A stretch of 64,000 nucleotides of DNA from a virus (taxonomy: Duplodnaviria; Caudoviricetes), in IMG/VR virus record IMGVR_UViG_2597490064_000001, positions 5,421-69,420 of that record; one strand, 5' to 3'. This document shows positions 1,807 through 62,587 of this stretch, one piece after another. Both the position numbers and the translations under genes were made by a program. How positions within the stretch are numbered: the stretch's first letter is position 1; the number at the start of each line of letters is the position of its first letter. A model generated the notes under the pieces. The model saw only the letters and a program-made list of their open reading frames with translations. It did no database searches and was not told where the DNA came from.

Positions 1807-1879
1807 GGTGTGCTAGGCGCATCCTGACGTTTCAATGTATTCAGTTTTAGAATGATTGCAACATCAGGATTTCTTATGC

Positions 1880-3760
1880 ATGGCTGACGTTACACAAGGT
1901 GTGGACATGGTACAACTCGGCCATGGGACAGCGGGTGGCATTCGCGCTGATGGCCTGCAAAACGTGTTCACAGGCATGGGCACGACGCGCGATAAGACCA
2001 CACGTACTACTGTCAAGCCTGTCAGCTTTATGGGCCATGAAGACCTTGAGGGTCTTTATGCGCACTGGCTCATGCGCCGCATTGTCGACCTCGTGGCTGA
2101 TGAGAGCACCCGCGAGGGCCTTGAAATTTTGTTTGGCGGGGAGGGCGTGAATGCTGAGACACTTTCTGGCGTTGAGCAGGCCATTGAAGACTTAGAAATT
2201 CTGTCAAGCTTCAACGAGGCAGCTAAGACTTCACGACTGTATGGCGGTAGCGCACTGTTGCTTTACATCGATGATGGCCGTCCGTCTGATATGCCCGTTG
2301 ATCGCAACAACATTCGTGCTGTAGAGGGCATGGAATGCTTGGATCGGCACCAGATTGCGCCGGTTATCAGCGAAGACAGTCTTTACGATTATTCAAAGGC
2401 AACTTACTACCAGATTATTTCGGGCGATCTCATTCAACAGCCCAATCTCCGCGCCATCCATAAGGACAGGATTTTGCGCTTTGACGGCATCTGGCTGCCC
2501 TACCGCACTCGCCAGAAGAACTATGGCTGGGGCATGAGCGTACTGCAGAGCGTATTTGAAAGCTTCAATCACTACTACAGCGGCACTTCCTCCATTGCCA
2601 CCCTCCTTACTGAATTTGACATTTTCGTTCACAAGGTGCGTGGTCTGGCTTCGATGCTTGCTGCAGGCAAGGAAGGACAGGTGCGTGATCGCCTGCAATT
2701 GAACGACATGAGCAAGAGCATCTATCGCGGCTACGCGATTGATGCTGAAAAGGAAGAGCTGGCATTTGTAAGCCGCCATTTTGGCGGAGTGTCTGAAATT
2801 CTGGAAAAGCTGCGGCTTGACATCATTGCCGCATCTGGCATTCCCCATACATTGTTATTTGGCCAGTCGCCGTCAGGACTTGGTGCTACTGGCCGCTCGG
2901 AGGAACGCGACTTTGCCAAGGTTTGCCATCACTACCAGGAGACAAATTTCCGCAAGCCTCTGATGAAGCTGATGGAATACATCATGCTGAGCAAAATGGG
3001 GCCGACTGGCGGGAAAGTGCCCGACAACTGGCGCGTGAGCTTCAAGCCGCTGTTCGAGATGAATGAGCGGGAACTGGCGGACGTGCGGGCGCGTGTTGCT
3101 GCCGTGGATGCCCGCTACATCCAAGTGGGTGTGCTCACACCGCAGGAGGTGGCTGATAGCCGCTTCGGCAAGAGCGAATACAGCATTGAGACCACCATTG
3201 ATCCGTCCATCGTGCGGGAAATGCCCGACAAGGCGGGTAGTGGCGATGGAAAGATGGCAGTGCCCCCTGGTGGCCGCGATCCTCTGGATCAAGCCAACGG
3301 GAGCCTTCCGATGGATGGCACTCGTGAAGCCGCGCCTGACGATCAAACGATGGATGAAGCTGGGCTCTATCTCTCGCGGGATCTAGAGCACCAGCGTGGC
3401 GATGTGGAATTCAAGGACGAGGAACTCCACAAGAAGGCAATTGCTGCAGCGAAGGCCAAGTTCAAGACTTGGCCGAGCGCAGTGGCCGGTGCCTATGTAA
3501 CGCGAAAGTACAAGGAGTTGTATAAGCGCAAGCACGGCAGCATGGAAGGCGCCTTCAAGGGCAAGAAGGAGACTGCCGAATATTTCAAGGAGGATGCCAT
3601 CGAGCCGATGAAGGCTGAAGGGCTCATTCTTGGCGACATCGACGAGGCCTCCCTGATTTCCCAAGCCGATATTGATGCCGCATTGAATCAGTGGAAAGCG
3701 GAGGCGCCGGAGCGCTTCAAGGACATTCTGGAGGCTTCTGATGCTCAGCCCACTGAGTGA
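1880..3760 (+). CDS. Portal protein (DUF1073 family) with C-terminal extension
   Basis: RRIVDLVADESTR, RLYGGS, IHKDRILRF, WGMSVLQ, GIPHTLLFGQSPSGL and F.PL motifs typical of DUF1073 portals; first gene of the head module. Start placed at ATG 1880. Confidence 0.9.
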   Translation: MADVTQGVDMVQLGHGTAGGIRADGLQNVFTGMGTTRDKTTRTTVKPVSFMGHEDLEGLYAHWLMRRIVDLVADESTREGLEILFGGEGVNAETLSGVEQAIEDLEILSSFNEAAKTSRLYGGSALLLYIDDGRPSDMPVDRNNIRAVEGMECLDRHQIAPVISEDSLYDYSKATYYQIISGDLIQQPNLRAIHKDRILRFDGIWLPYRTRQKNYGWGMSVLQSVFESFNHYYSGTSSIATLLTEFDIFVHKVRGLASMLAAGKEGQVRDRLQLNDMSKSIYRGYAIDAEKEELAFVSRHFGGVSEILEKLRLDIIAASGIPHTLLFGQSPSGLGATGRSEERDFAKVCHHYQETNFRKPLMKLMEYIMLSKMGPTGGKVPDNWRVSFKPLFEMNERELADVRARVAAVDARYIQVGVLTPQEVADSRFGKSEYSIETTIDPSIVREMPDKAGSGDGKMAVPPGGRDPLDQANGSLPMDGTREAAPDDQTMDEAGLYLSRDLEHQRGDVEFKDEELHKKAIAAAKAKFKTWPSAVAGAYVTRKYKELYKRKHGSMEGAFKGKKETAEYFKEDAIEPMKAEGLILGDIDEASLISQADIDAALNQWKAEAPERFKDILEASDAQPTE

Positions 3761-6862: not shown

Positions 6863-6896
6863 CATCGAAGCAGAAGCAAGCGAAGGTGCGCAAGGT

Positions 6897-7412
6897 TTAG
6901 TACGCTTCAACGTGCTGCCATTGACGCCCCTTCTCGATATGCCCAATTGTTGTCCGCGTTACATTGAGCGCTTTTGCCAACATATTTCGGGAGAGATTTG
7001 GATGAGAGCGGAGAATTGCCTTGATTGCGGCTACTTGGTCTTCTGTTAACTTGCTTCTTCCGTTTCTCTCTCCTTTGTGTGTGCCGTGGATCACGGCGTC
7101 TTTGCAGTTCTCCTCTGGAGATCCCCATGCAAGATTTGACGCGCGATTGTCGCGACGGTCCCCGTTTAGATGCCTGACAACTTGGAAATCTTTAGGAGCG
7201 CCGTGAAATGCTTCGCATACAAGGCGATGTACTTGTCGAGTGAGTCCCGTTACCCCCTTTGGATAAAGTCCGACTTTGCCATACGGCCCAGACCAGTTGA
7301 TTTTCAAAAGAATTCGCCTGCCATTTTTATGCTTGCAAACACGACCTTGATCGCTTACCTCGTATAAGCCATCTGTTTCGACAATGGGGCGCCAGTTTTC
7401 TTTGTGATCCAT
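6897..7412 (-). CDS. NUMOD4-HNH homing endonuclease with C-terminal HTH
   Basis: ENWRPI...YEVSDQGRV (NUMOD4); VHRLVCEAFHG...VRHLNGDRRDNRASNL (HNH); KLTEDQV...W.HV tail; inserted antisense in the head module. Confidence 0.9.
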   Translation of the reverse strand: MDHKENWRPIVETDGLYEVSDQGRVCKHKNGRRILLKINWSGPYGKVGLYPKGVTGLTRQVHRLVCEAFHGAPKDFQVVRHLNGDRRDNRASNLAWGSPEENCKDAVIHGTHKGERNGRSKLTEDQVAAIKAILRSHPNLSRNMLAKALNVTRTTIGHIEKGRQWQHVEAY

Positions 7413-45530: not shown

Positions 45531-46037
45531 ATGTTTGTGGCGTATGAGCCCGATGATTACATCACTGGCCTCATTGAATTGCGTAAGTCGGACGCCACAC
45601 GACGCTTTAGGAAATCTATCTTCGACGACTATCCGCTTCGCGGCCCGCTAGGGCAGTCCGCGTGCGCTTATTGCGGGCGATGGAATGAGAAACTGACCAT
45701 CGACCACATTGTTCCTAAGAGTAAGGGCGGCCCTCACTTCGCCCGTTGGAACATGGTGCCCGCTTGCAAACGGTGCAACCTTGCCAAGACTGATTTGCCA
45801 GTGTTTGAATGGTGGCGGCCAACGGATCAATGGTCGCAGCAGCGAGAGGAAGTGCTGATGGCCTGGACCTACGCCAACAGTTTCATCGATGCCCACACTG
45901 ACAGTGATGAATACTGGCGGTTCCTGGCTGAGAAGCGGGTGGTGCAGAAGGAAATAATGCGTCGCATAAGAAAAGGGCCATTTCGTGGCCCTTTTTCTTT
46001 AGCCGATTTGGGAGACGTTGGCTGGGCTGCTGCTTAG
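45531..46037 (+). CDS. HNH endonuclease (McrA-like)
   Basis: CAYCG...LTIDHIVPKSKGG...NMVPACKRCN..K. Confidence 0.88.
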   Translation: MFVAYEPDDYITGLIELRKSDATRRFRKSIFDDYPLRGPLGQSACAYCGRWNEKLTIDHIVPKSKGGPHFARWNMVPACKRCNLAKTDLPVFEWWRPTDQWSQQREEVLMAWTYANSFIDAHTDSDEYWRFLAEKRVVQKEIMRRIRKGPFRGPFSLADLGDVGWAAA

Positions 46038-46709: not shown

Positions 46710-47216
46710 TCATATATTTACGTGCGTCCAGATTTTACCCATGCGGATGCTGCTTATCAAGCTCTTGCTGACACCATACTGATCAGCCAGTTCATAAATC
46801 GTCACCCCCTGCGCTTTGCGTATTGCGATCACTTGGTCCTCTGTCAGCTTTGCGTTCATGTTGGACGCTCCGCGCTTCATAACAGAATTACCAGCCCTGT
46901 TTCCTTTGATTTTGTCATTGAAATTATCCTTGTGAGTGCCAAGTAAAAGATGCGTCGGATTGCAACAAGCTGGATTGTGACACATATGTCGCACTACAAG
47001 CCCTTCGGGAATTTGCCCAAAAGCAAATTCCCAGGCAAGTCTATGGGTGGCACGAGTTCTTCTTTTGCCATTAACAAACTCCGTGATTTGCCCGTAGCCA
47101 TTCCCGCGAAAAGCGCCGCACCATGGCCAGCATTGATGGTCCTGTCTTCTTTTAACAGAAAGGGAAAAGCGGTCATAAAGAGATGTTTGGCCAGAAGGTA
47201 TACGCAGAGGAAACAT
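46710..47216 (-). CDS. HNH homing endonuclease
   Basis: CWPWCG...GYG...HRLAWE...VRHMCHNPACCNPTHL..GT..DN; KLTEDQV HTH tail; adjacent to thyX. Confidence 0.9.
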   Translation of the reverse strand: MFPLRIPSGQTSLYDRFSLSVKRRQDHQCWPWCGAFRGNGYGQITEFVNGKRRTRATHRLAWEFAFGQIPEGLVVRHMCHNPACCNPTHLLLGTHKDNFNDKIKGNRAGNSVMKRGASNMNAKLTEDQVIAIRKAQGVTIYELADQYGVSKSLISSIRMGKIWTHVNI

Positions 47217-53205: not shown

Positions 53206-55194
53206 ATGGCCTTCAACATCCTTGACCACGAAGCCAAGCTGGAGCCTTCCAAAGAATCAGGGAAATATAAGTGTCCGGCCTGTGGCGGCAACAATCTCAG
53301 CCTCGACCGTAACAACGGCTCCTACAACTGCTGGAACGATCCCTCCCCTAAACATCGCGCCGAAATCCGCAACATCCTTGCTCCGATGAAGCGCTGGGAA
53401 CGTCCGCCTCGCGAGGCTGGCAACTATCGCTTCCCTTACGAAAACCGAGACGGTGAAAGGGTTTTGGACGTTGTGCGTCGCGACAACGACGGCAAGAAGC
53501 AGATTTTTCAAGAATATCCTGGCGTCGCTGCCGACACAAAACAACGTAAGCAGGCCATCGATAGCTTGCGTTCGCAGGTGTTGCCATATCGATATAACGA
53601 AGCTGTTGAAGCTTCCAAAGCGCTACGTCTGCCTGTTTTTGTCGTTGAAGGTGAGCTTTGCTGCGATGCTGTATGGCAAATCGGCTTGCCGTCCGTCACA
53701 TTCCTCGGTGGTAGCAAGCAATACCGAAGCAATGGGGACTACTCATCCCTGTTCAAAAACGTCCGTCTCGTTCTGTGTCCCGACCGAGATGAGCCAGGCG
53801 TGGCTCTCATGCGGGAAGTGGCGGTCGACAATCCCGGCGCCCAGTGGCTCTATGCAGATCCCGAAAGTTTTGAATGGGACTCGCTCCCGCAAAACAACGG
53901 TTTCGACATTTCCGATTGGATTGATGAAGGTGCCGACCAAGAACTCATCCTCGGCTCCATCGTTTCCCAGGATCGCCACGAGGGCCATGATGGCCTTCCC
54001 TCTTATGAGGAGATCATTGGCGCCCTAGAGACCATGGTCGGCCTTTATGGCAATGATGCTCGCGTGCTGTTTGAGGCACGCCAATGGATGACGAACCACG
54101 GGCTCAAGCTTGTCACCAGCGAGCTTGAGAAGCTCCTGGCCGAAGCTAAAACCCGCGTGGATGGCAAAGAGGAGATTGAAGTGTTGGACGCCAAAGCCAT
54201 TGCCCTGTCAAACGAAGTGAGGCGTTGGACTATTGCTGGCATCCTTCCCGAAAGTAGCGTGATGCTGCTAGCCGCTGCTCCAGGCAGCGGCAAATCAACG
54301 CTCATTTACAACTGGGCGTTACATGTTGCAACTGGTACGCAGTGGAGCGGCAGACGTTGCGCTAAAGGCAAGAGCCTAATCATCCAGTGCGACGAACCCG
54401 TGGTCGATGCAGCGGAAAAGATGCAGGTGATTGGCTACGACCGCAACGACCTAAACCCTCAAGACATTGGTTTTGTTGAACGCTGGCGTTTCTCCAACAT
54501 TGGCTGGCTTGCCGACCGCATCAAGCGTGATCGTCCGCAATTCGTAGCCATCGACAGCCTTACGGCATGCCTGGCCGGCATGGACGTGGATCTCATCAGA
54601 AGCGATGCAGGCAACGTCATCTACGAACTGCGTGACATTGCCAACACCTATGGCTGCAGCATTGTCATCCTCCACCACTTAAACAAAACTGGCGGCATCC
54701 GAGATAGCTCCAGCTTTGAAGCCAACGTCTCGGAAGTGGTGAAGCTCTACCGCTCAGAGAACAATCCTGTTCCTAACGAATTCCTTCTGGAATGGACAAA
54801 AAGCCGTTCAGGCCTGTCTGGTAAGCACTATTTGGTGCGGGAGCCTGGTACTTATGGCTGGTTCTACAGGGGGCCAATGGACGGCGACCCTGAAGGGCTC
54901 ATGAGGGTGTGCAATGCAGTGAACAACAGGGGCATGGAGCGTTTTGATGCTCATCAGGTGAGCACCATGCTTGGCATGTTTGACACTGGTGCAGCTCGCC
55001 GCATGTTGGAGCAAGGCAGACGCCAGGGCCTCATCTCTTCATCATGGAAACTTGGTCCCACTGGTGAGCGGGACCGCATGTATCACTCTTTTGATTATGT
55101 GGAATCAGAACTGTCGGACTTTGCGGAGGAGAAACCAACTATCGAGAACGCCCCTGAGGAAGTGCCAGATTTTGATGATGGCATTCCGTTCTAA
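53206..55194 (+). CDS. Primase-helicase (Zn finger, TOPRIM, RecA-like AAA_25)
   Basis: CPAC...C; VVEGE..CD...PDRDEPG; AAPGSGKST; VAIDSL; ILHHLNK; acidic DDGIPF tail. Confidence 0.9.
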   Translation: MAFNILDHEAKLEPSKESGKYKCPACGGNNLSLDRNNGSYNCWNDPSPKHRAEIRNILAPMKRWERPPREAGNYRFPYENRDGERVLDVVRRDNDGKKQIFQEYPGVAADTKQRKQAIDSLRSQVLPYRYNEAVEASKALRLPVFVVEGELCCDAVWQIGLPSVTFLGGSKQYRSNGDYSSLFKNVRLVLCPDRDEPGVALMREVAVDNPGAQWLYADPESFEWDSLPQNNGFDISDWIDEGADQELILGSIVSQDRHEGHDGLPSYEEIIGALETMVGLYGNDARVLFEARQWMTNHGLKLVTSELEKLLAEAKTRVDGKEEIEVLDAKAIALSNEVRRWTIAGILPESSVMLLAAAPGSGKSTLIYNWALHVATGTQWSGRRCAKGKSLIIQCDEPVVDAAEKMQVIGYDRNDLNPQDIGFVERWRFSNIGWLADRIKRDRPQFVAIDSLTACLAGMDVDLIRSDAGNVIYELRDIANTYGCSIVILHHLNKTGGIRDSSSFEANVSEVVKLYRSENNPVPNEFLLEWTKSRSGLSGKHYLVREPGTYGWFYRGPMDGDPEGLMRVCNAVNNRGMERFDAHQVSTMLGMFDTGAARRMLEQGRRQGLISSSWKLGPTGERDRMYHSFDYVESELSDFAEEKPTIENAPEEVPDFDDGIPF

Positions 55195-56053: not shown

Positions 56054-56241
56054 CGCACAATAATGTCCTATCCGATGCGGAATGGGCTGAAATGGACTCG
56101 ATACGGAGGGCCATTAAAGATGGCCCTCCTAGTGTCGCTGCTCAGAAAATGGAAAGGTTCACCGAATTGTTCGTGCGGACCTTGCCATATGAAGGCGATA
56201 CAATTGCGGCAACGCTAAACAGAACGAATGGCTCAGCCTGA
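56050..56241 (+). CDS. Hypothetical protein
   Basis: EWAEM...PPSV...MERFTEL motif. Confidence 0.55.
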   Translation: MTHNNVLSDAEWAEMDSIRRAIKDGPPSVAAQKMERFTELFVRTLPYEGDTIAATLNRTNGSA

Positions 56242-56959
56242 AATTGTCTTCAAAGATAAAGAAGAAGGCCTGCGCTATGCATTGAAAATTTTGACAGATG
56301 CTGGCCTCACGCCAGAGGAGATCGAGCGCGTTCGTGCGAAAAACAAGCCTGGCGTGAACATGGCCAAAGACCTTATCGGCCTGCGTCGATATATGGTCCA
56401 GGAGCTGTTAGCGGCCAATATGAGCAACCGTCAAATTGCTGATGCATTGCAGCTCAGCAAAGAGACGGTGAATGCTGACCGTCATCATGCTCGCCAGCTC
56501 TATACGGAAAAGCTTCTGCAAAGCGCAGACGTGCATCGAGCACGTCTGCTGAAAGAGCAAATGGACTTAAAAGAAAAGGCCATGGAGGCCTTTGAGCACA
56601 GCAAACGCAAGAAGGTGACCACTATTCAAGATGGTGACGATGGTAAGGGCGGCACCATGATCAAGGTGGAAGAAAGTGCCGGAGAGCATGGCTTCCTGAA
56701 CGTGGCGAAGAATGCCCTAGTGGAGCAGGCTAAGCTCCTGGGCTTGCACGAACTCAAGCGTGAAGAGCAGCAAGACAAGACCTACCAGCAGTTCTTGAAG
56801 GACTTGACCGTCACCATTGATAAAGAGAAGAAGCTCAGTGAAGACACTGCCATGAAGGAAGGTGCAGTGGAAGTCGAAGCTGTAGACGCAAGTGAGAATG
56901 ATGAGGCGCGTGATGTAGCAGAGCGCACGCGATTCCTTCAAAGTTCAGAAAGTCTTTAG
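56228..56959 (+). CDS. HTH protein, possibly terminase small subunit
   Basis: RR..VQELL...MSNRQIADALQLSKETVNAD; AKLLGL motif common in TerS-like proteins. Confidence 0.5.
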   Translation: MAQPEIVFKDKEEGLRYALKILTDAGLTPEEIERVRAKNKPGVNMAKDLIGLRRYMVQELLAANMSNRQIADALQLSKETVNADRHHARQLYTEKLLQSADVHRARLLKEQMDLKEKAMEAFEHSKRKKVTTIQDGDDGKGGTMIKVEESAGEHGFLNVAKNALVEQAKLLGLHELKREEQQDKTYQQFLKDLTVTIDKEKKLSEDTAMKEGAVEVEAVDASENDEARDVAERTRFLQSSESL

Positions 56960-58672: not shown

Positions 58673-58828
58673 ATGGATAGAGAACTGATGGAATGGACAA
58701 TGAAGCCTTCTGAATTCTTTGAAGAGATGGCCTATCGCATGCGACGCCTGGAAAAGCGCCTGGCCAAACTCAAGAAGACTGAAGAAGAACTCATTCTTGA
58801 ACGCTACCGCCAAGCCACTTCTATTTAA
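58673..58828 (+). CDS. Small coiled-coil protein
   Basis: ATG 58673; followed by a terminator. Confidence 0.5.
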   Translation: MDRELMEWTMKPSEFFEEMAYRMRRLEKRLAKLKKTEEELILERYRQATSI

Positions 58829-59034
58829 CCATCGGCCCCATCAGGGGCCTTTTTCATGCGGCAATGTTGACGCCCTTCTTTGCCTTTAGCTTGCGCCCAG
58901 GTGGAATCGTTCGGTAGCGGCTCGGTGCCATATTCAAAGGTGTCGTAGTCTTCTTCATTGCGAGGGTCATATACCACTCCCATGCGCAGCCATTTTGCGA
59001 GGCGTTCCTTTTCCTGCTCTGGTGAAAGCTTCAT
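58825..59034 (-). CDS. Hypothetical protein
   Basis: MKLSPEQEKERLAKWL...YGTEPLP.D..W. Confidence 0.5.
   Translation of the reverse strand: MKLSPEQEKERLAKWLRMGVVYDPRNEEDYDTFEYGTEPLPNDSTWAQAKGKEGRQHCRMKKAPDGADG
58834..58855 (+). terminator. Intrinsic terminator
   Basis: GGCCCC-ATCA-GGGGCC-TTTTT. Confidence 0.7.
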
Positions 59035-59083
59035 GCCAGATCCGGCCAATGCTGTATAGAGACTAGCTAGGTATGTATCAATG

Positions 59084-59111
59084 AAAAAGGCGGGCCTTAA
59101 AGCCCGCCTTT
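59084..59111. terminator. Bidirectional intrinsic terminator
   Basis: AAAAAGGCGGGC-CTTAAA-GCCCGCCTTT. Confidence 0.85.
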
Positions 59112-59308
59112 CTTAATGGTTGTGGCCTCCGATGAGCAATTTTACCTACGAGAGCAAGGCTCAACCGTAGGGACAGTGCGCTCCTGGGGTCCATGCGATA
59201 CCCCGGCTAGCTCCAACAAGAACATCGCCCACACTGTCTCGCCCGTCCACCCTTACGGCTCGCCACGGATGACGAGGGAAGCGGTTAAACCTCCAGGACC
59301 GACCACTC
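59112..59308 (-). ncRNA. Candidate free-standing structured ncRNA (~200 nt plus terminator)
   Basis: Extended -10 TG-C-TACTAT (59321-59313), multiple helices with G-U pairs valid only on the minus strand, a UCCG tetraloop, and a downstream terminator. Confidence 0.7.
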
Positions 59309-59450
59309 AGAAATAGTAGCACCAGCAACACCATGCTGCCCTCTACACCAATTCTTAAGAAATTCACGGGCCAGACGGAAAATAGGGCACAATGGTGGAA
59401 CTGCAAAGCCGGCGACGGCCTGCAGCTCCTGGAGCTACTCTCTTTTTCTG

Positions 59451-59807
59451 ATGCTTCGATTTCTGTCTTCTCTCCTGCTGCTGGGCACCATTGCACCATC
59501 CGCCCAGGCAGCAGCATTTCAATGCGGCCAAGCAAGCCACTACGGCATTGGTGATGGCTACCACGGGCAGCGAACTGCCTCTGGCCAACGCTTTGATGCT
59601 TATGGCATGACCGCCGCCCATCCGTCGCTACCACTGGGCTCTCGCGTGGTTGTGAAGAACCGTGACAATGGCCGCACCGTGTTGGTGACCATCAATGATC
59701 GCGGTCCTTACGCTGGTGGCCGCGTGCTCGATCTGTCCTACGGCAGCTTCTCTCGCATTGCTCCGCCCGGCCAGGGCGTAGCCAACGTCTGCATCTCCCG
59801 AGCCTGA
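59451..59807 (+). CDS. rlpA: RlpA-family DPBB lytic transglycosylase
   Basis: Signal peptide; GQASHYG...TASGQRFD...TAAHPSLPLGS...V.INDRGPY...R.LDLS. Confidence 0.9.
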   Translation: MLRFLSSLLLLGTIAPSAQAAAFQCGQASHYGIGDGYHGQRTASGQRFDAYGMTAAHPSLPLGSRVVVKNRDNGRTVLVTINDRGPYAGGRVLDLSYGSFSRIAPPGQGVANVCISRA

Positions 59808-62132: not shown

Positions 62133-62183
62133 GGGGGCTTCGGCCCCTGCTGGTGTATAGTTCTCTCACGGCCGGCGACGGTC
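62133..62183 (+). promoter_or_regulatory. Hairpin, -10 TATAGT and GCGA hairpin
   Basis: GGGGC-TTCG-GCCCC; TGGTGTATAGT; GGCCG-GCGA-CGGTC. Confidence 0.7.
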
Positions 62184-62200
62184 CCAATTGCCTAGTCACC

Positions 62201-62587
62201 ATGACCTCCATCGCTCCTCCCCTCCAGGGCACCCAGCTTCAGCCCGGCACCATCCTTTGCGGCTCCTGGGGCTACAGCATGACCATCGTGGATTTCTACG
62301 TCGTGGTCAAATGCACCGAGAAGACCGCCTGGGTGCAGCAAATCCAAGCCCATGAAGTGGATCATGGTCCTGCTGGTGGTCACGCCGTTCCTGAGCTGAC
62401 TCGGAAGCCTGCTCTGGTGTTTCAGAACCGTGAAGACGGACAGGGTGGTGAAATGGTGCAAGCCCCCATCAAGATGTTCCGCATCCGCAAGGACAACGAC
62501 GGCACGGAGTGGCTCTGGAACAGCAAGTTCAAATGCAGCCTCCGCATCTGGAACGGCCAGCACGTCTACAGCAACCACTGGGACTGA
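62201..62587 (+). CDS. Hypothetical early protein
   Basis: G.IL..SWGY.MT.VDFY.VV motif. Confidence 0.6.
   Translation: MTSIAPPLQGTQLQPGTILCGSWGYSMTIVDFYVVVKCTEKTAWVQQIQAHEVDHGPAGGHAVPELTRKPALVFQNREDGQGGEMVQAPIKMFRIRKDNDGTEWLWNSKFKCSLRIWNGQHVYSNHWD

Follow-up and report, generated by a model that had tools for sequence, protein, structure and literature searches.

The virus record IMGVR_UViG_2597490064_000001 of IMG/VR contains, directly upstream of an rlpA-like gene, an interval for which a preliminary description made from the letters of the DNA had proposed a free-standing, multi-helix, non-coding RNA gene on the minus strand, divergent from rlpA. This locus raises the question of whether such an RNA gene exists and, if so, on what the RNA acts. 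The window analyzed was a 64-kb portion of this 69,420-base record, which has a completeness rating of 99%. The results indicated that the locus is most likely a stand-alone gene for a predicted RNA of ∼225 nucleotides (nt), transcribed leftward from its own promoter to its own terminator. Furthermore, we consider it probable that this RNA acts in trans, by base pairing, as a regulator of the divergent rlpA operon and that its pairing region is carried on a complex, conserved scaffold.

A homologue search with covariation analysis had been recommended in the preliminary description. Relatives of the neighboring RlpA-like protein were used to gather 79 viral loci, and the RNA region was detected by blastn in 21 of these (74 to 90% identity). 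When 11 sequences were aligned by MAFFT without use of structure, the segment bounded by the -10 box and the terminator was more conserved than the flanks, and RNAalifold predicted 56 pairs on this alignment, 14 of them with compensatory changes. A covariance model (R1) built from the same alignment gave full-length matches in further viral loci. A combined motif scan found at least 72 genuine members among the 120 metagenome loci listed and 3 among 74 loci of genome contigs, all 3 being short contigs of metagenome-assembled genomes (MAGs). The family, whose size is a lower bound, comprises at least 100 viral, metagenome and MAG loci and at least 85 distinct sequences. No member was detected by nhmmer among the more distant rlpA phages (L032 to L080) or among 120 chance pattern matches in genomes, and blastn of positions 58800 to 59500 against isolated phages gave no match.

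Analysis of 85 distinct homologues indicated that 49 of the 55 base pairs change on both sides. Paired cells made up 98.4% of the total, compared to 40 to 49% after the 3' partners had been slid by 1 to 3 columns, and none of 500 shuffles attained any of five structure measures. On the sequence evidence, this structured RNA gene is real and is widespread in uncultured aquatic phages, and the free-standing, multi-helix RNA first proposed from one sequence was upheld.

The consensus structure is a branched fold of 11 helices with three multi-helix junctions. Some of the helices that had been drawn from the single sequence were recovered by covariation (P1, P2b, P4 and P6), but CCGUAaGG/CCUACGG and UGAGC/GCUCA were not, and the two suggested pseudoknots, UCCUGG/CCAGGA and GCGAU/AUCGC, likewise received no support. 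These four pairings were 60 to 74% paired versus 44 to 62% in slid controls, and their segments sit in other covarying helices or in the single-stranded junction between P6 and P4 (J6/4). The partner of CCUACGG is CGUAGG, that of GCUCA is GGGCG and that of UCC is the GGA of GGAC; CCAGGA, the proposed pseudoknot partner, is the seed for the rlpA-leader pairing described below. Helix P2 occurs in relatives as GUUC:GAAC and GCUU:AAGC. RNAalifold had paired UCC and GA with AUCGGA, an arrangement that was rejected, as covariation gives GUCC:GGAC instead. The AUCGGA joint was invariant in 34 of 34 rows of alignment A2, including those from loci found through RlpA with no use of an RNA motif. An all-against-all scan of the alignment columns detected no convincing tertiary pair and no covarying loop-loop pair. 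The AACCA that follows P1, to which the preliminary description had drawn attention, was unconserved in relatives.

The strand of the RNA was indicated by both folding and base composition of the pairs. The minus-strand fold had a free energy of -100 kcal/mol (z = -2.75), equaled by 1 of 200 shuffles, while 35 of 200 shuffles equaled the plus-strand fold (z = -0.91). Among 1,626 paired cells, 229 were G·U, the plus-strand equivalents of which would be A·C, and the RNA strand is therefore the minus strand, as had been argued from the G-U pairs of the single sequence. Open reading frames (ORFs) of 157 and 38 amino acids (aa) on the minus strand and 66 aa on the plus strand overlap the region, and one of these could in principle encode a small protein. 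Against this, none of the six frames was fully open in 15 of 31 distinct homologues, and the core lengths (161 to 196 nt) were spread over all three classes modulo 3. No ORF was conserved across the homologues, the ORFs of the region had no match in Pfam or PHROG, and substitutions tracked base pairs and not codons. A protein-coding function is so improbable that it can practically be dismissed, in line with the original opinion that the locus has no credible ORF.

Signals for transcription were found on both sides of the structured core. A -10 box with a TG extension (TGCTACTAT) precedes it, and the usual -10 spacing would place the start of transcription at ∼59307/59306 on the minus strand, in agreement with the promoter and the start near 59306-08 that had been predicted. 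Of 69 distinct upstream flanks, 64 carried the pattern TGnTAnnnT no more than 24 nt from the core, and 68 carried TAnnnT there. Downstream, the strong terminator that had been noticed consists of a 13-bp GC-rich hairpin followed by a U-run, and an A-tract upstream of the hairpin makes it bidirectional. All 84 distinct downstream flanks had a hairpin and then a T-run within 60 nt of P1, with unrelated stem sequences. The -10 box was absent from the list produced by a two-hexamer promoter scan of the window, and the hairpin was absent from that of a simple terminator scan; the two calls rest on sequence, fold and conservation. By sequence signals alone, the locus is thus an independent transcription unit, as is looked for in a trans-encoded small RNA (sRNA). 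In one relative (L093), the terminator hairpin and T-run are tandemly duplicated immediately 3' of the RNA.

A promoter followed by a structure, a terminator and a gene is also the classic order of a cis-acting leader, and the next gene, c2, lies on the same strand and begins 61 to 135 nt past P1 in 61 of 89 loci. The RNA could then be a riboswitch or attenuator of c2 in which the terminator served as the expression platform. However, 17 of the 89 loci have c2 on the other strand and 11 lack it, and therefore the RNA is not a c2 leader. Moreover, the terminator stems vary by lineage with no conserved alternative pairing with the core, and a separate, conserved promoter-like block is present between the terminator and c2 in most loci. 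We regard control of c2 in cis as very improbable.

The RNA is also linked to rlpA. In 80 of the 81 loci having at least 500 nt upstream, rlpA is divergent from the RNA and starts within 400 nt of it, a conserved form of the arrangement seen in the first sequence, and this holds in a family whose most distant members have an RlpA identity down to 45 to 60%. The leader of rlpA has a conserved order consisting of a GNRA-capped hairpin, a short block, a pyrimidine-rich spacer of ∼20 nt that lacks a Shine-Dalgarno (SD) sequence, and the AUG. The rlpA mRNA seems, from the conserved sequence, to begin with this stable hairpin, which could provide 5'-end protection or a tertiary contact. A script detected an SD-like motif in 13 of 46 genes, or in 12 of 46 without rlpA, which was flagged solely via the GGAG of the short block, ∼20 nt upstream. 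Because so few of the genes have such a motif, the SD-less leader of rlpA is not special.

The short block of the leader is complementary to the RNA, a match that the preliminary description had not considered. Junction J6/4 is unpaired in both the minimum-free-energy fold and the consensus, and with its flanks (CCAGGAGC) it is complementary to the leader block GCUCCUGG, the predicted duplex having an energy of -20.4 kcal/mol in the window. Across loci, predicted duplexes ranged from -8.6 to -20.5 kcal/mol and the well-matched lineages paired at the aligned leader block; in ∼20 divergent rows, a free duplex search picked the upstream hairpin over this block. The mean duplex energy was -14.65 kcal/mol for cognate and -11.85 kcal/mol for non-cognate combinations, a difference equaled in none of 5,000 permutations, and the result was likewise for 36 representatives. 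At the aligned positions of 72 distinct RNA/leader pairs, uninterrupted pairing extended over at least 5 bp in 71 and over at least 6 bp in 68. The longest helix had a mean of 6.89 bp in cognate pairs versus 5.38 bp in non-cognate pairs, with none of 5,000 permutations as high. When the whole RNA was scanned in 10-nt segments, J6/4 ranked first in duplex strength and also in cognate excess. No segment internal to the RNA covaries with the seed (largest excess, 0.1 bp), and no alternative structure sequestering the seed was found.

The complementarity was maintained through many changes of sequence. The 72 distinct pairs contained 25 seed/target types, among them CAGGAG/CUCCUG, CAGAGG/CCUCUG, GCGAGG/CCUCGC, GAGAGG/CCUCUC, AUGGGGC/GCCCCAU and GUGAGA/UCUCAC, the longer GAGAGGC/GCCUCUC, AGUGAGA/UCUCACU and GUGAGAA/UUCUCAC, and also GUAAGG/CCUUGC, UCAGAGGC/GCCUCUGG and UAUGGGGC/GCCCCAUG. 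An exposed seed with compensatory change, as is looked for in a trans-encoded sRNA, is thereby present. Of the cells formed by 33 distinct combinations in a fixed 8-nt register, 192 were Watson-Crick, 31 were G·U and 2 were A·C; 39 fell outside these classes, most of them at the two flank positions. On the minus strand, any such seed and target must read as direct repeats, here ∼240 bp apart, and they could instead be a pair of operators for a phage DNA-binding protein; the back-to-back promoters of the intergenic region and a nearby gene for a LuxR-type helix-turn-helix (HTH) protein would suit such a role. A DNA repeat predicts equal numbers of G·U and A·C cells, whereas the differences between the two copies preserve RNA pairing, and the excess of G·U (31 versus 2) therefore argues for RNA-RNA pairing over a direct repeat. 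In addition, one copy coincides precisely with an unpaired junction in the covarying RNA fold and the blocks are non-palindromic. An operator pair is an improbable explanation.

From the co-evolving complementarity between J6/4 and the leader, it follows that the RNA most likely regulates rlpA. In the mechanism we propose, the 5- to 7-nt junction between P6 and P4 (AGGAG here) would stay single stranded and serve as a seed. It would pair in trans with the block of the rlpA mRNA leader that lies just 3' of the GNRA-capped hairpin, ∼20 to 30 nt before the AUG, and this pairing would govern the expression of both the wall-cutting RlpA-like protein, which is secreted, and the small membrane protein behind it. 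We infer production of both RNAs and their pairing in the cell. The effect on rlpA may be repression, a weak suggestion that rests on the resemblance to antisense-type regulators encoded divergently from toxic envelope genes. The position of the site, 19 to 30 nt ahead of the AUG in a leader lacking an SD sequence, fits repression or activation alike. Features of the RNA and of the rlpA operon are listed in Table 1.

Table 1. Features of the RNA locus, the rlpA operon and other genes of the window
Feature	Position	Strand	Details
Promoter, -10 box with TG extension	59313-59321	-	TGCTACTAT; from sequence
Structured core, 189 nt	59120-59308	-	Core position n = 59309 - n; covariance model R1, 198.8 bits
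P1, closing helix	59306-59301 with 59127-59122	-	GUGGUC/GGCCAC; both-side changes in 5/6 pairs; 99.2% paired
P2, four-way junction, encloses P2a to P2c	59299-59296 with 59248-59245	-	GUCC/GGAC; both-side changes in 3/4 pairs, one-sided 0
P2a, hairpin	59294-59277	-	Loop UUAAYN; 6/6 pairs covary
P2b, hairpin	59276-59259	-	CUCGUCA/UGGCGAG; 6/7 pairs covary
P2c, 2-bp mini-hairpin CC-GNRA-GG	59258-59251	-	CCGUAAGG; invariant
P3, encloses P4 to P7	59244-59240 with 59138-59134	-	GGGCG/UGCUC; both-side changes in 4/5 pairs; 99.5% paired
P4, carries P5/P5a and P6	59237-59230 with 59180-59173	-	GACAGUGUG/CGCACUGUC; both-side changes in 8/8 pairs
P5/P5a	59229-59205	-	Both-side changes: P5, 3/3; P5a, 3/3
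P6	59204-59186	-	GGGGU/ACCCC; loop GCAUGG; both-side changes in 4/4 pairs
J6/4, putative seed	59185-59181	-	AGGAG, single-stranded P6-P4 junction; with flanks CCAGGAGC, 59187-59180
P7, hairpin	59148-59168	-	Both-side changes in 7/7 pairs; 95.4% paired
J3/1, single-stranded P3-P1 joint	59128-59133	-	AUCGGA; invariant
Intrinsic terminator, 13-bp GC-rich hairpin	59084-59111	-	GGCGGGCU-UUAA-GGCCCGCC and U-run; from sequence and fold
rlpA leader 5' hairpin, GNRA loop	59401-59425	+	GCGA here, GAGA elsewhere; conserved in 72/72 distinct leaders; from folding
Putative target block	59425-59432	+	GCUCCUGG; rlpA leader, 26 to 19 nt before AUG
rlpA-like gene, 118 aa	59451-59807	+	Signal peptide and DPBB domain; Pfam DPBB_1, E 8.3e-23; PHROG 7930, E 3.9e-38
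Small hydrophobic protein, 59 aa	59832-60011	+	Directly 3' of rlpA; from ORF list
c2 gene	58825-59034	-	Homologues in 78/89 family loci
LuxR-type HTH gene	56228-56959		Near RNA locus
Portal gene	1856-3760		∼55 kb from RNA gene

Several points weigh against regulation of rlpA by this RNA or limit the weight of the evidence for it. Alignments A2 and A3 were fitted to the structure of the model, so that their pair counts favor the model; the structure-blind result with 11 sequences agrees with these alignments on the fold. The complementarity was first spotted by eye and tested afterwards, the permutation tests ignore sequence relatedness, and a GAGG/CCUC core is common to most lineages, so that non-cognate pairs are also fairly good. 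The match in L409 is of 4 bp only, and L351, the sole family member without rlpA, has nevertheless retained the RNA. The pairing site lies beyond the zone in which pairing plainly blocks ribosomes, in a leader without an SD sequence. No RNA run containing this sequence was among those listed; three runs of one study contained 27 to 29% of its words as contigs, which cannot show expression. Finally, a seed of 6 to 8 bp would not account for the conservation of a scaffold of 190 nt and 11 helices in which junction nucleotides are invariant.

The last of these points, together with the persistence of the RNA in L351, favors a main function unrelated to rlpA, in which the RNA would be a ribonucleoprotein scaffold, a decoy for a host RNA-binding or defense protein, a ligand binder or a ribozyme and the match in J6/4 would be incidental or secondary. 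Eleven helices, three multi-helix junctions, the invariant AUCGGA and the GNRA mini-hairpin do exceed the needs of a seed carrier. At least eight compensated seed/target states and the predominance of G·U over A·C would, however, be hard to obtain without selection for pairing. Furthermore, no RNA-binding protein family was detected among the 39 neighboring or early-region proteins scanned, and no ribozyme or riboswitch model matched at E values up to 10. The preliminary description had suggested a decoy or anti-defense, packaging or catalytic role, and nothing found points that way. An unrelated main function is in our judgment unlikely. As to the scaffold itself, for which the P2 junction and AUCGGA stand out, stability, binding of a protein partner and binding of a ligand are candidate roles. 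In one possibility, which we hold to be rather unlikely, the RNA would be a sensor acting in trans: the P2 four-way junction, the GNRA mini-hairpin and AUCGGA would recognize a small molecule or a protein of the host or phage, and this binding would gate the exposure of J6/4. The phage would thereby time its rlpA operon with a riboswitch-like RNA whose effect falls on a separate mRNA.

Comparison with known RNAs was consistent with a new family. The Rfam scan that had been recommended (Rfam 15) gave no match at the gathering threshold in the 64-kb window, in keeping with the description of the RNA as uncharacterized. At E values up to 10, positions 58900 to 59500 had 12 weak matches, the best of 23.5 bits versus a threshold of 47; 11 of these were centered on or reached the terminator hairpin and one was upstream of the RNA, and none was to RF01051 or ydaO. 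Among 20 other members, no core match recurred and none was near threshold. The one weak overlap with a core was with GRIK4_3p_UTR in L416 (21 bits versus a threshold of 38; E value, 4), and ctRNA_p42d accounted for 17 of 28 weak matches, most of them adjacent to the core, at the terminator hairpin. ARAGORN detected no tRNA or tmRNA genes in the window which, with the lack of conservation of AACCA, bears out the earlier statement that the RNA is not a tRNA.

Other known classes were considered and rejected. A 6S RNA was excluded by the branched fold with three multi-helix junctions and the lack of a 6S match at E values up to 10, and a phi29-type packaging RNA by the distance from the portal gene (∼55 kb) and the lack of a covarying loop-loop pair. 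The cis-acting riboswitch or attenuator class was rejected on the grounds that rlpA is on the other strand, that c2 is opposite or absent in 28 of 89 loci and that no anti-terminator pairing is conserved.

The closest resemblance in organization is to type I toxin-antitoxin loci. In the IstR-1/tisB, OrzO/zorO and OhsC/shoB loci of Escherichia coli, a divergently encoded sRNA base pairs with the 5' leader of the gene next to it. These sRNAs are short and form one or two hairpins, and the targets of type I loci encode small (under ∼60 aa), hydrophobic, toxic peptides. The phage RNA resembles them in having its own promoter and terminator, a divergent orientation, a short complementarity to the leader upstream of the ribosome-binding region and a target operon that, by its sequence, encodes envelope-active products. 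It differs in having 11 covarying helices and invariant junctions, and its first target would be a secreted DPBB enzyme of 118 aa in place of a small toxic peptide, followed by the 59-aa hydrophobic protein. In joining an elaborate fold to a short, exposed segment for pairing with an mRNA leader, the phage RNA would resemble RNAIII of Staphylococcus aureus, a large structured RNA that presents seeds on a scaffold, and SreA/SreB and EutX/Rli55 of Listeria, which are riboswitch-derived RNAs acting in trans. In contrast to these, the RNA described here is phage encoded, has one apparent target next door and has no sequence or model similarity to them.

We found no account in the literature of an rlpA-linked phage RNA. 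A catalogue of structured RNAs (csRNAs) supported by covariation has been produced from intergenic regions of IMG/VR (Fremin, Bhatt and Kyrpides 2023; PMC10690425), and its candidates are described as being of 29 to 151 nt with no assigned function; its DNAVirus_X set has 8495 entries. The present RNA is like these in its source and in the intergenic covariation evidence and unlike them in its ∼190-nt core and proposed target; the main text of that paper does not mention rlpA, DPBB or lipoprotein. The family is thus uncatalogued in Rfam and in that main text, and it may be listed in part among the DNAVirus_X entries. With at least 85 distinct sequences, 11 helices and no Rfam family, it is among the better-supported new phage RNA families, and unlike most orphan structured RNAs it comes with a concrete candidate target. 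If the proposed regulation is correct, a phage controls a secreted peptidoglycan-cutting enzyme via a dedicated, elaborately folded RNA acting in trans, which prompts one to ask what its conserved scaffold might sense or bind.

Further occurrences of the seed complement were examined in the window. The 8-mer GCTCCTGG had 10 copies on both strands versus 2.4 expected, a number reached in none of 100 shuffles. One copy lies in the RNA gene and another in the rlpA leader, and several others are within genes at 53206-55194, 56228-56959 and 62153-62587. The extra copies could be further targets or could be due to chance.

The gene for the 59-aa hydrophobic protein probably belongs to the rlpA operon. 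In L351 (positions 6896 to 7079, on the same contig as L113), a homologue of this gene abuts the RNA promoter, and its first codons hold UCUCCU, which is complementary to the AGGAGA seed of L351.

The c2 gene remains the neighbor of the RNA even in loci where c2 is inverted. Its product is an acidic protein of 50 to 90 aa with a variable N terminus and the conserved motif DPRNxxDYDTFxYGTEPxPxDxTW, and it matched no Pfam or PHROG family; the idea that this short acidic protein is an RNA-binding partner of the RNA was rejected. The gap between the terminator and c2 (59050 to 59085, minus strand) contains a conserved block, (T)TGATAC/CCTATAC ... GCTAG ... CTATACA, that is found in the same place in relatives. 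The block resembles a promoter in which a TATAC element is repeated, and it could serve as an operator.

The proteins of the window include a portal protein, a major capsid protein, ThyX, a Sak-type annealing protein, a primase/helicase-like AAA protein and HNH endonucleases. The closest isolate match of the portal protein was that of Aphanizomenon phage CL131 (34% identity), the capsid protein was at most 33% identical to those of assorted phages, and the cellular relatives of RlpA had up to ∼60% identity and were scattered across taxa. The three MAG contigs that carry the RNA were binned to Aquiluna, Bacteroidetes and Rhodobiaceae. As these matches are distant and the bins disagree on taxon, no host was assigned. 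Two free-standing HNH endonuclease genes, at 45531-46037 (plus strand) and 46710-47216 (minus strand), adjoin thyX and genes for dCTP-deaminase-like proteins.

Observations were also made on more distant rlpA phages that do not have this RNA. In L055 (5151-5248), L061 (5404-5505) and L056 (6153-6316 and 4485-4521), rlpA lies within a tRNA gene cluster, which also has wcaG RNA (102 and 74 bits), a permuted tmRNA (51.8 bits) and abiF RNA (44.7 bits). A conserved G/C-rich element of ∼70 nt, AGAGCCC...GGTGTACCCCCCTTCTATTGGGATGTAGA in the rlpA sense, was without an Rfam match at the gathering score. The element lies ∼30 to 100 nt upstream of rlpA in five AT-rich phages (L034, L039, L045, L055 and L056) and may be a cis leader.

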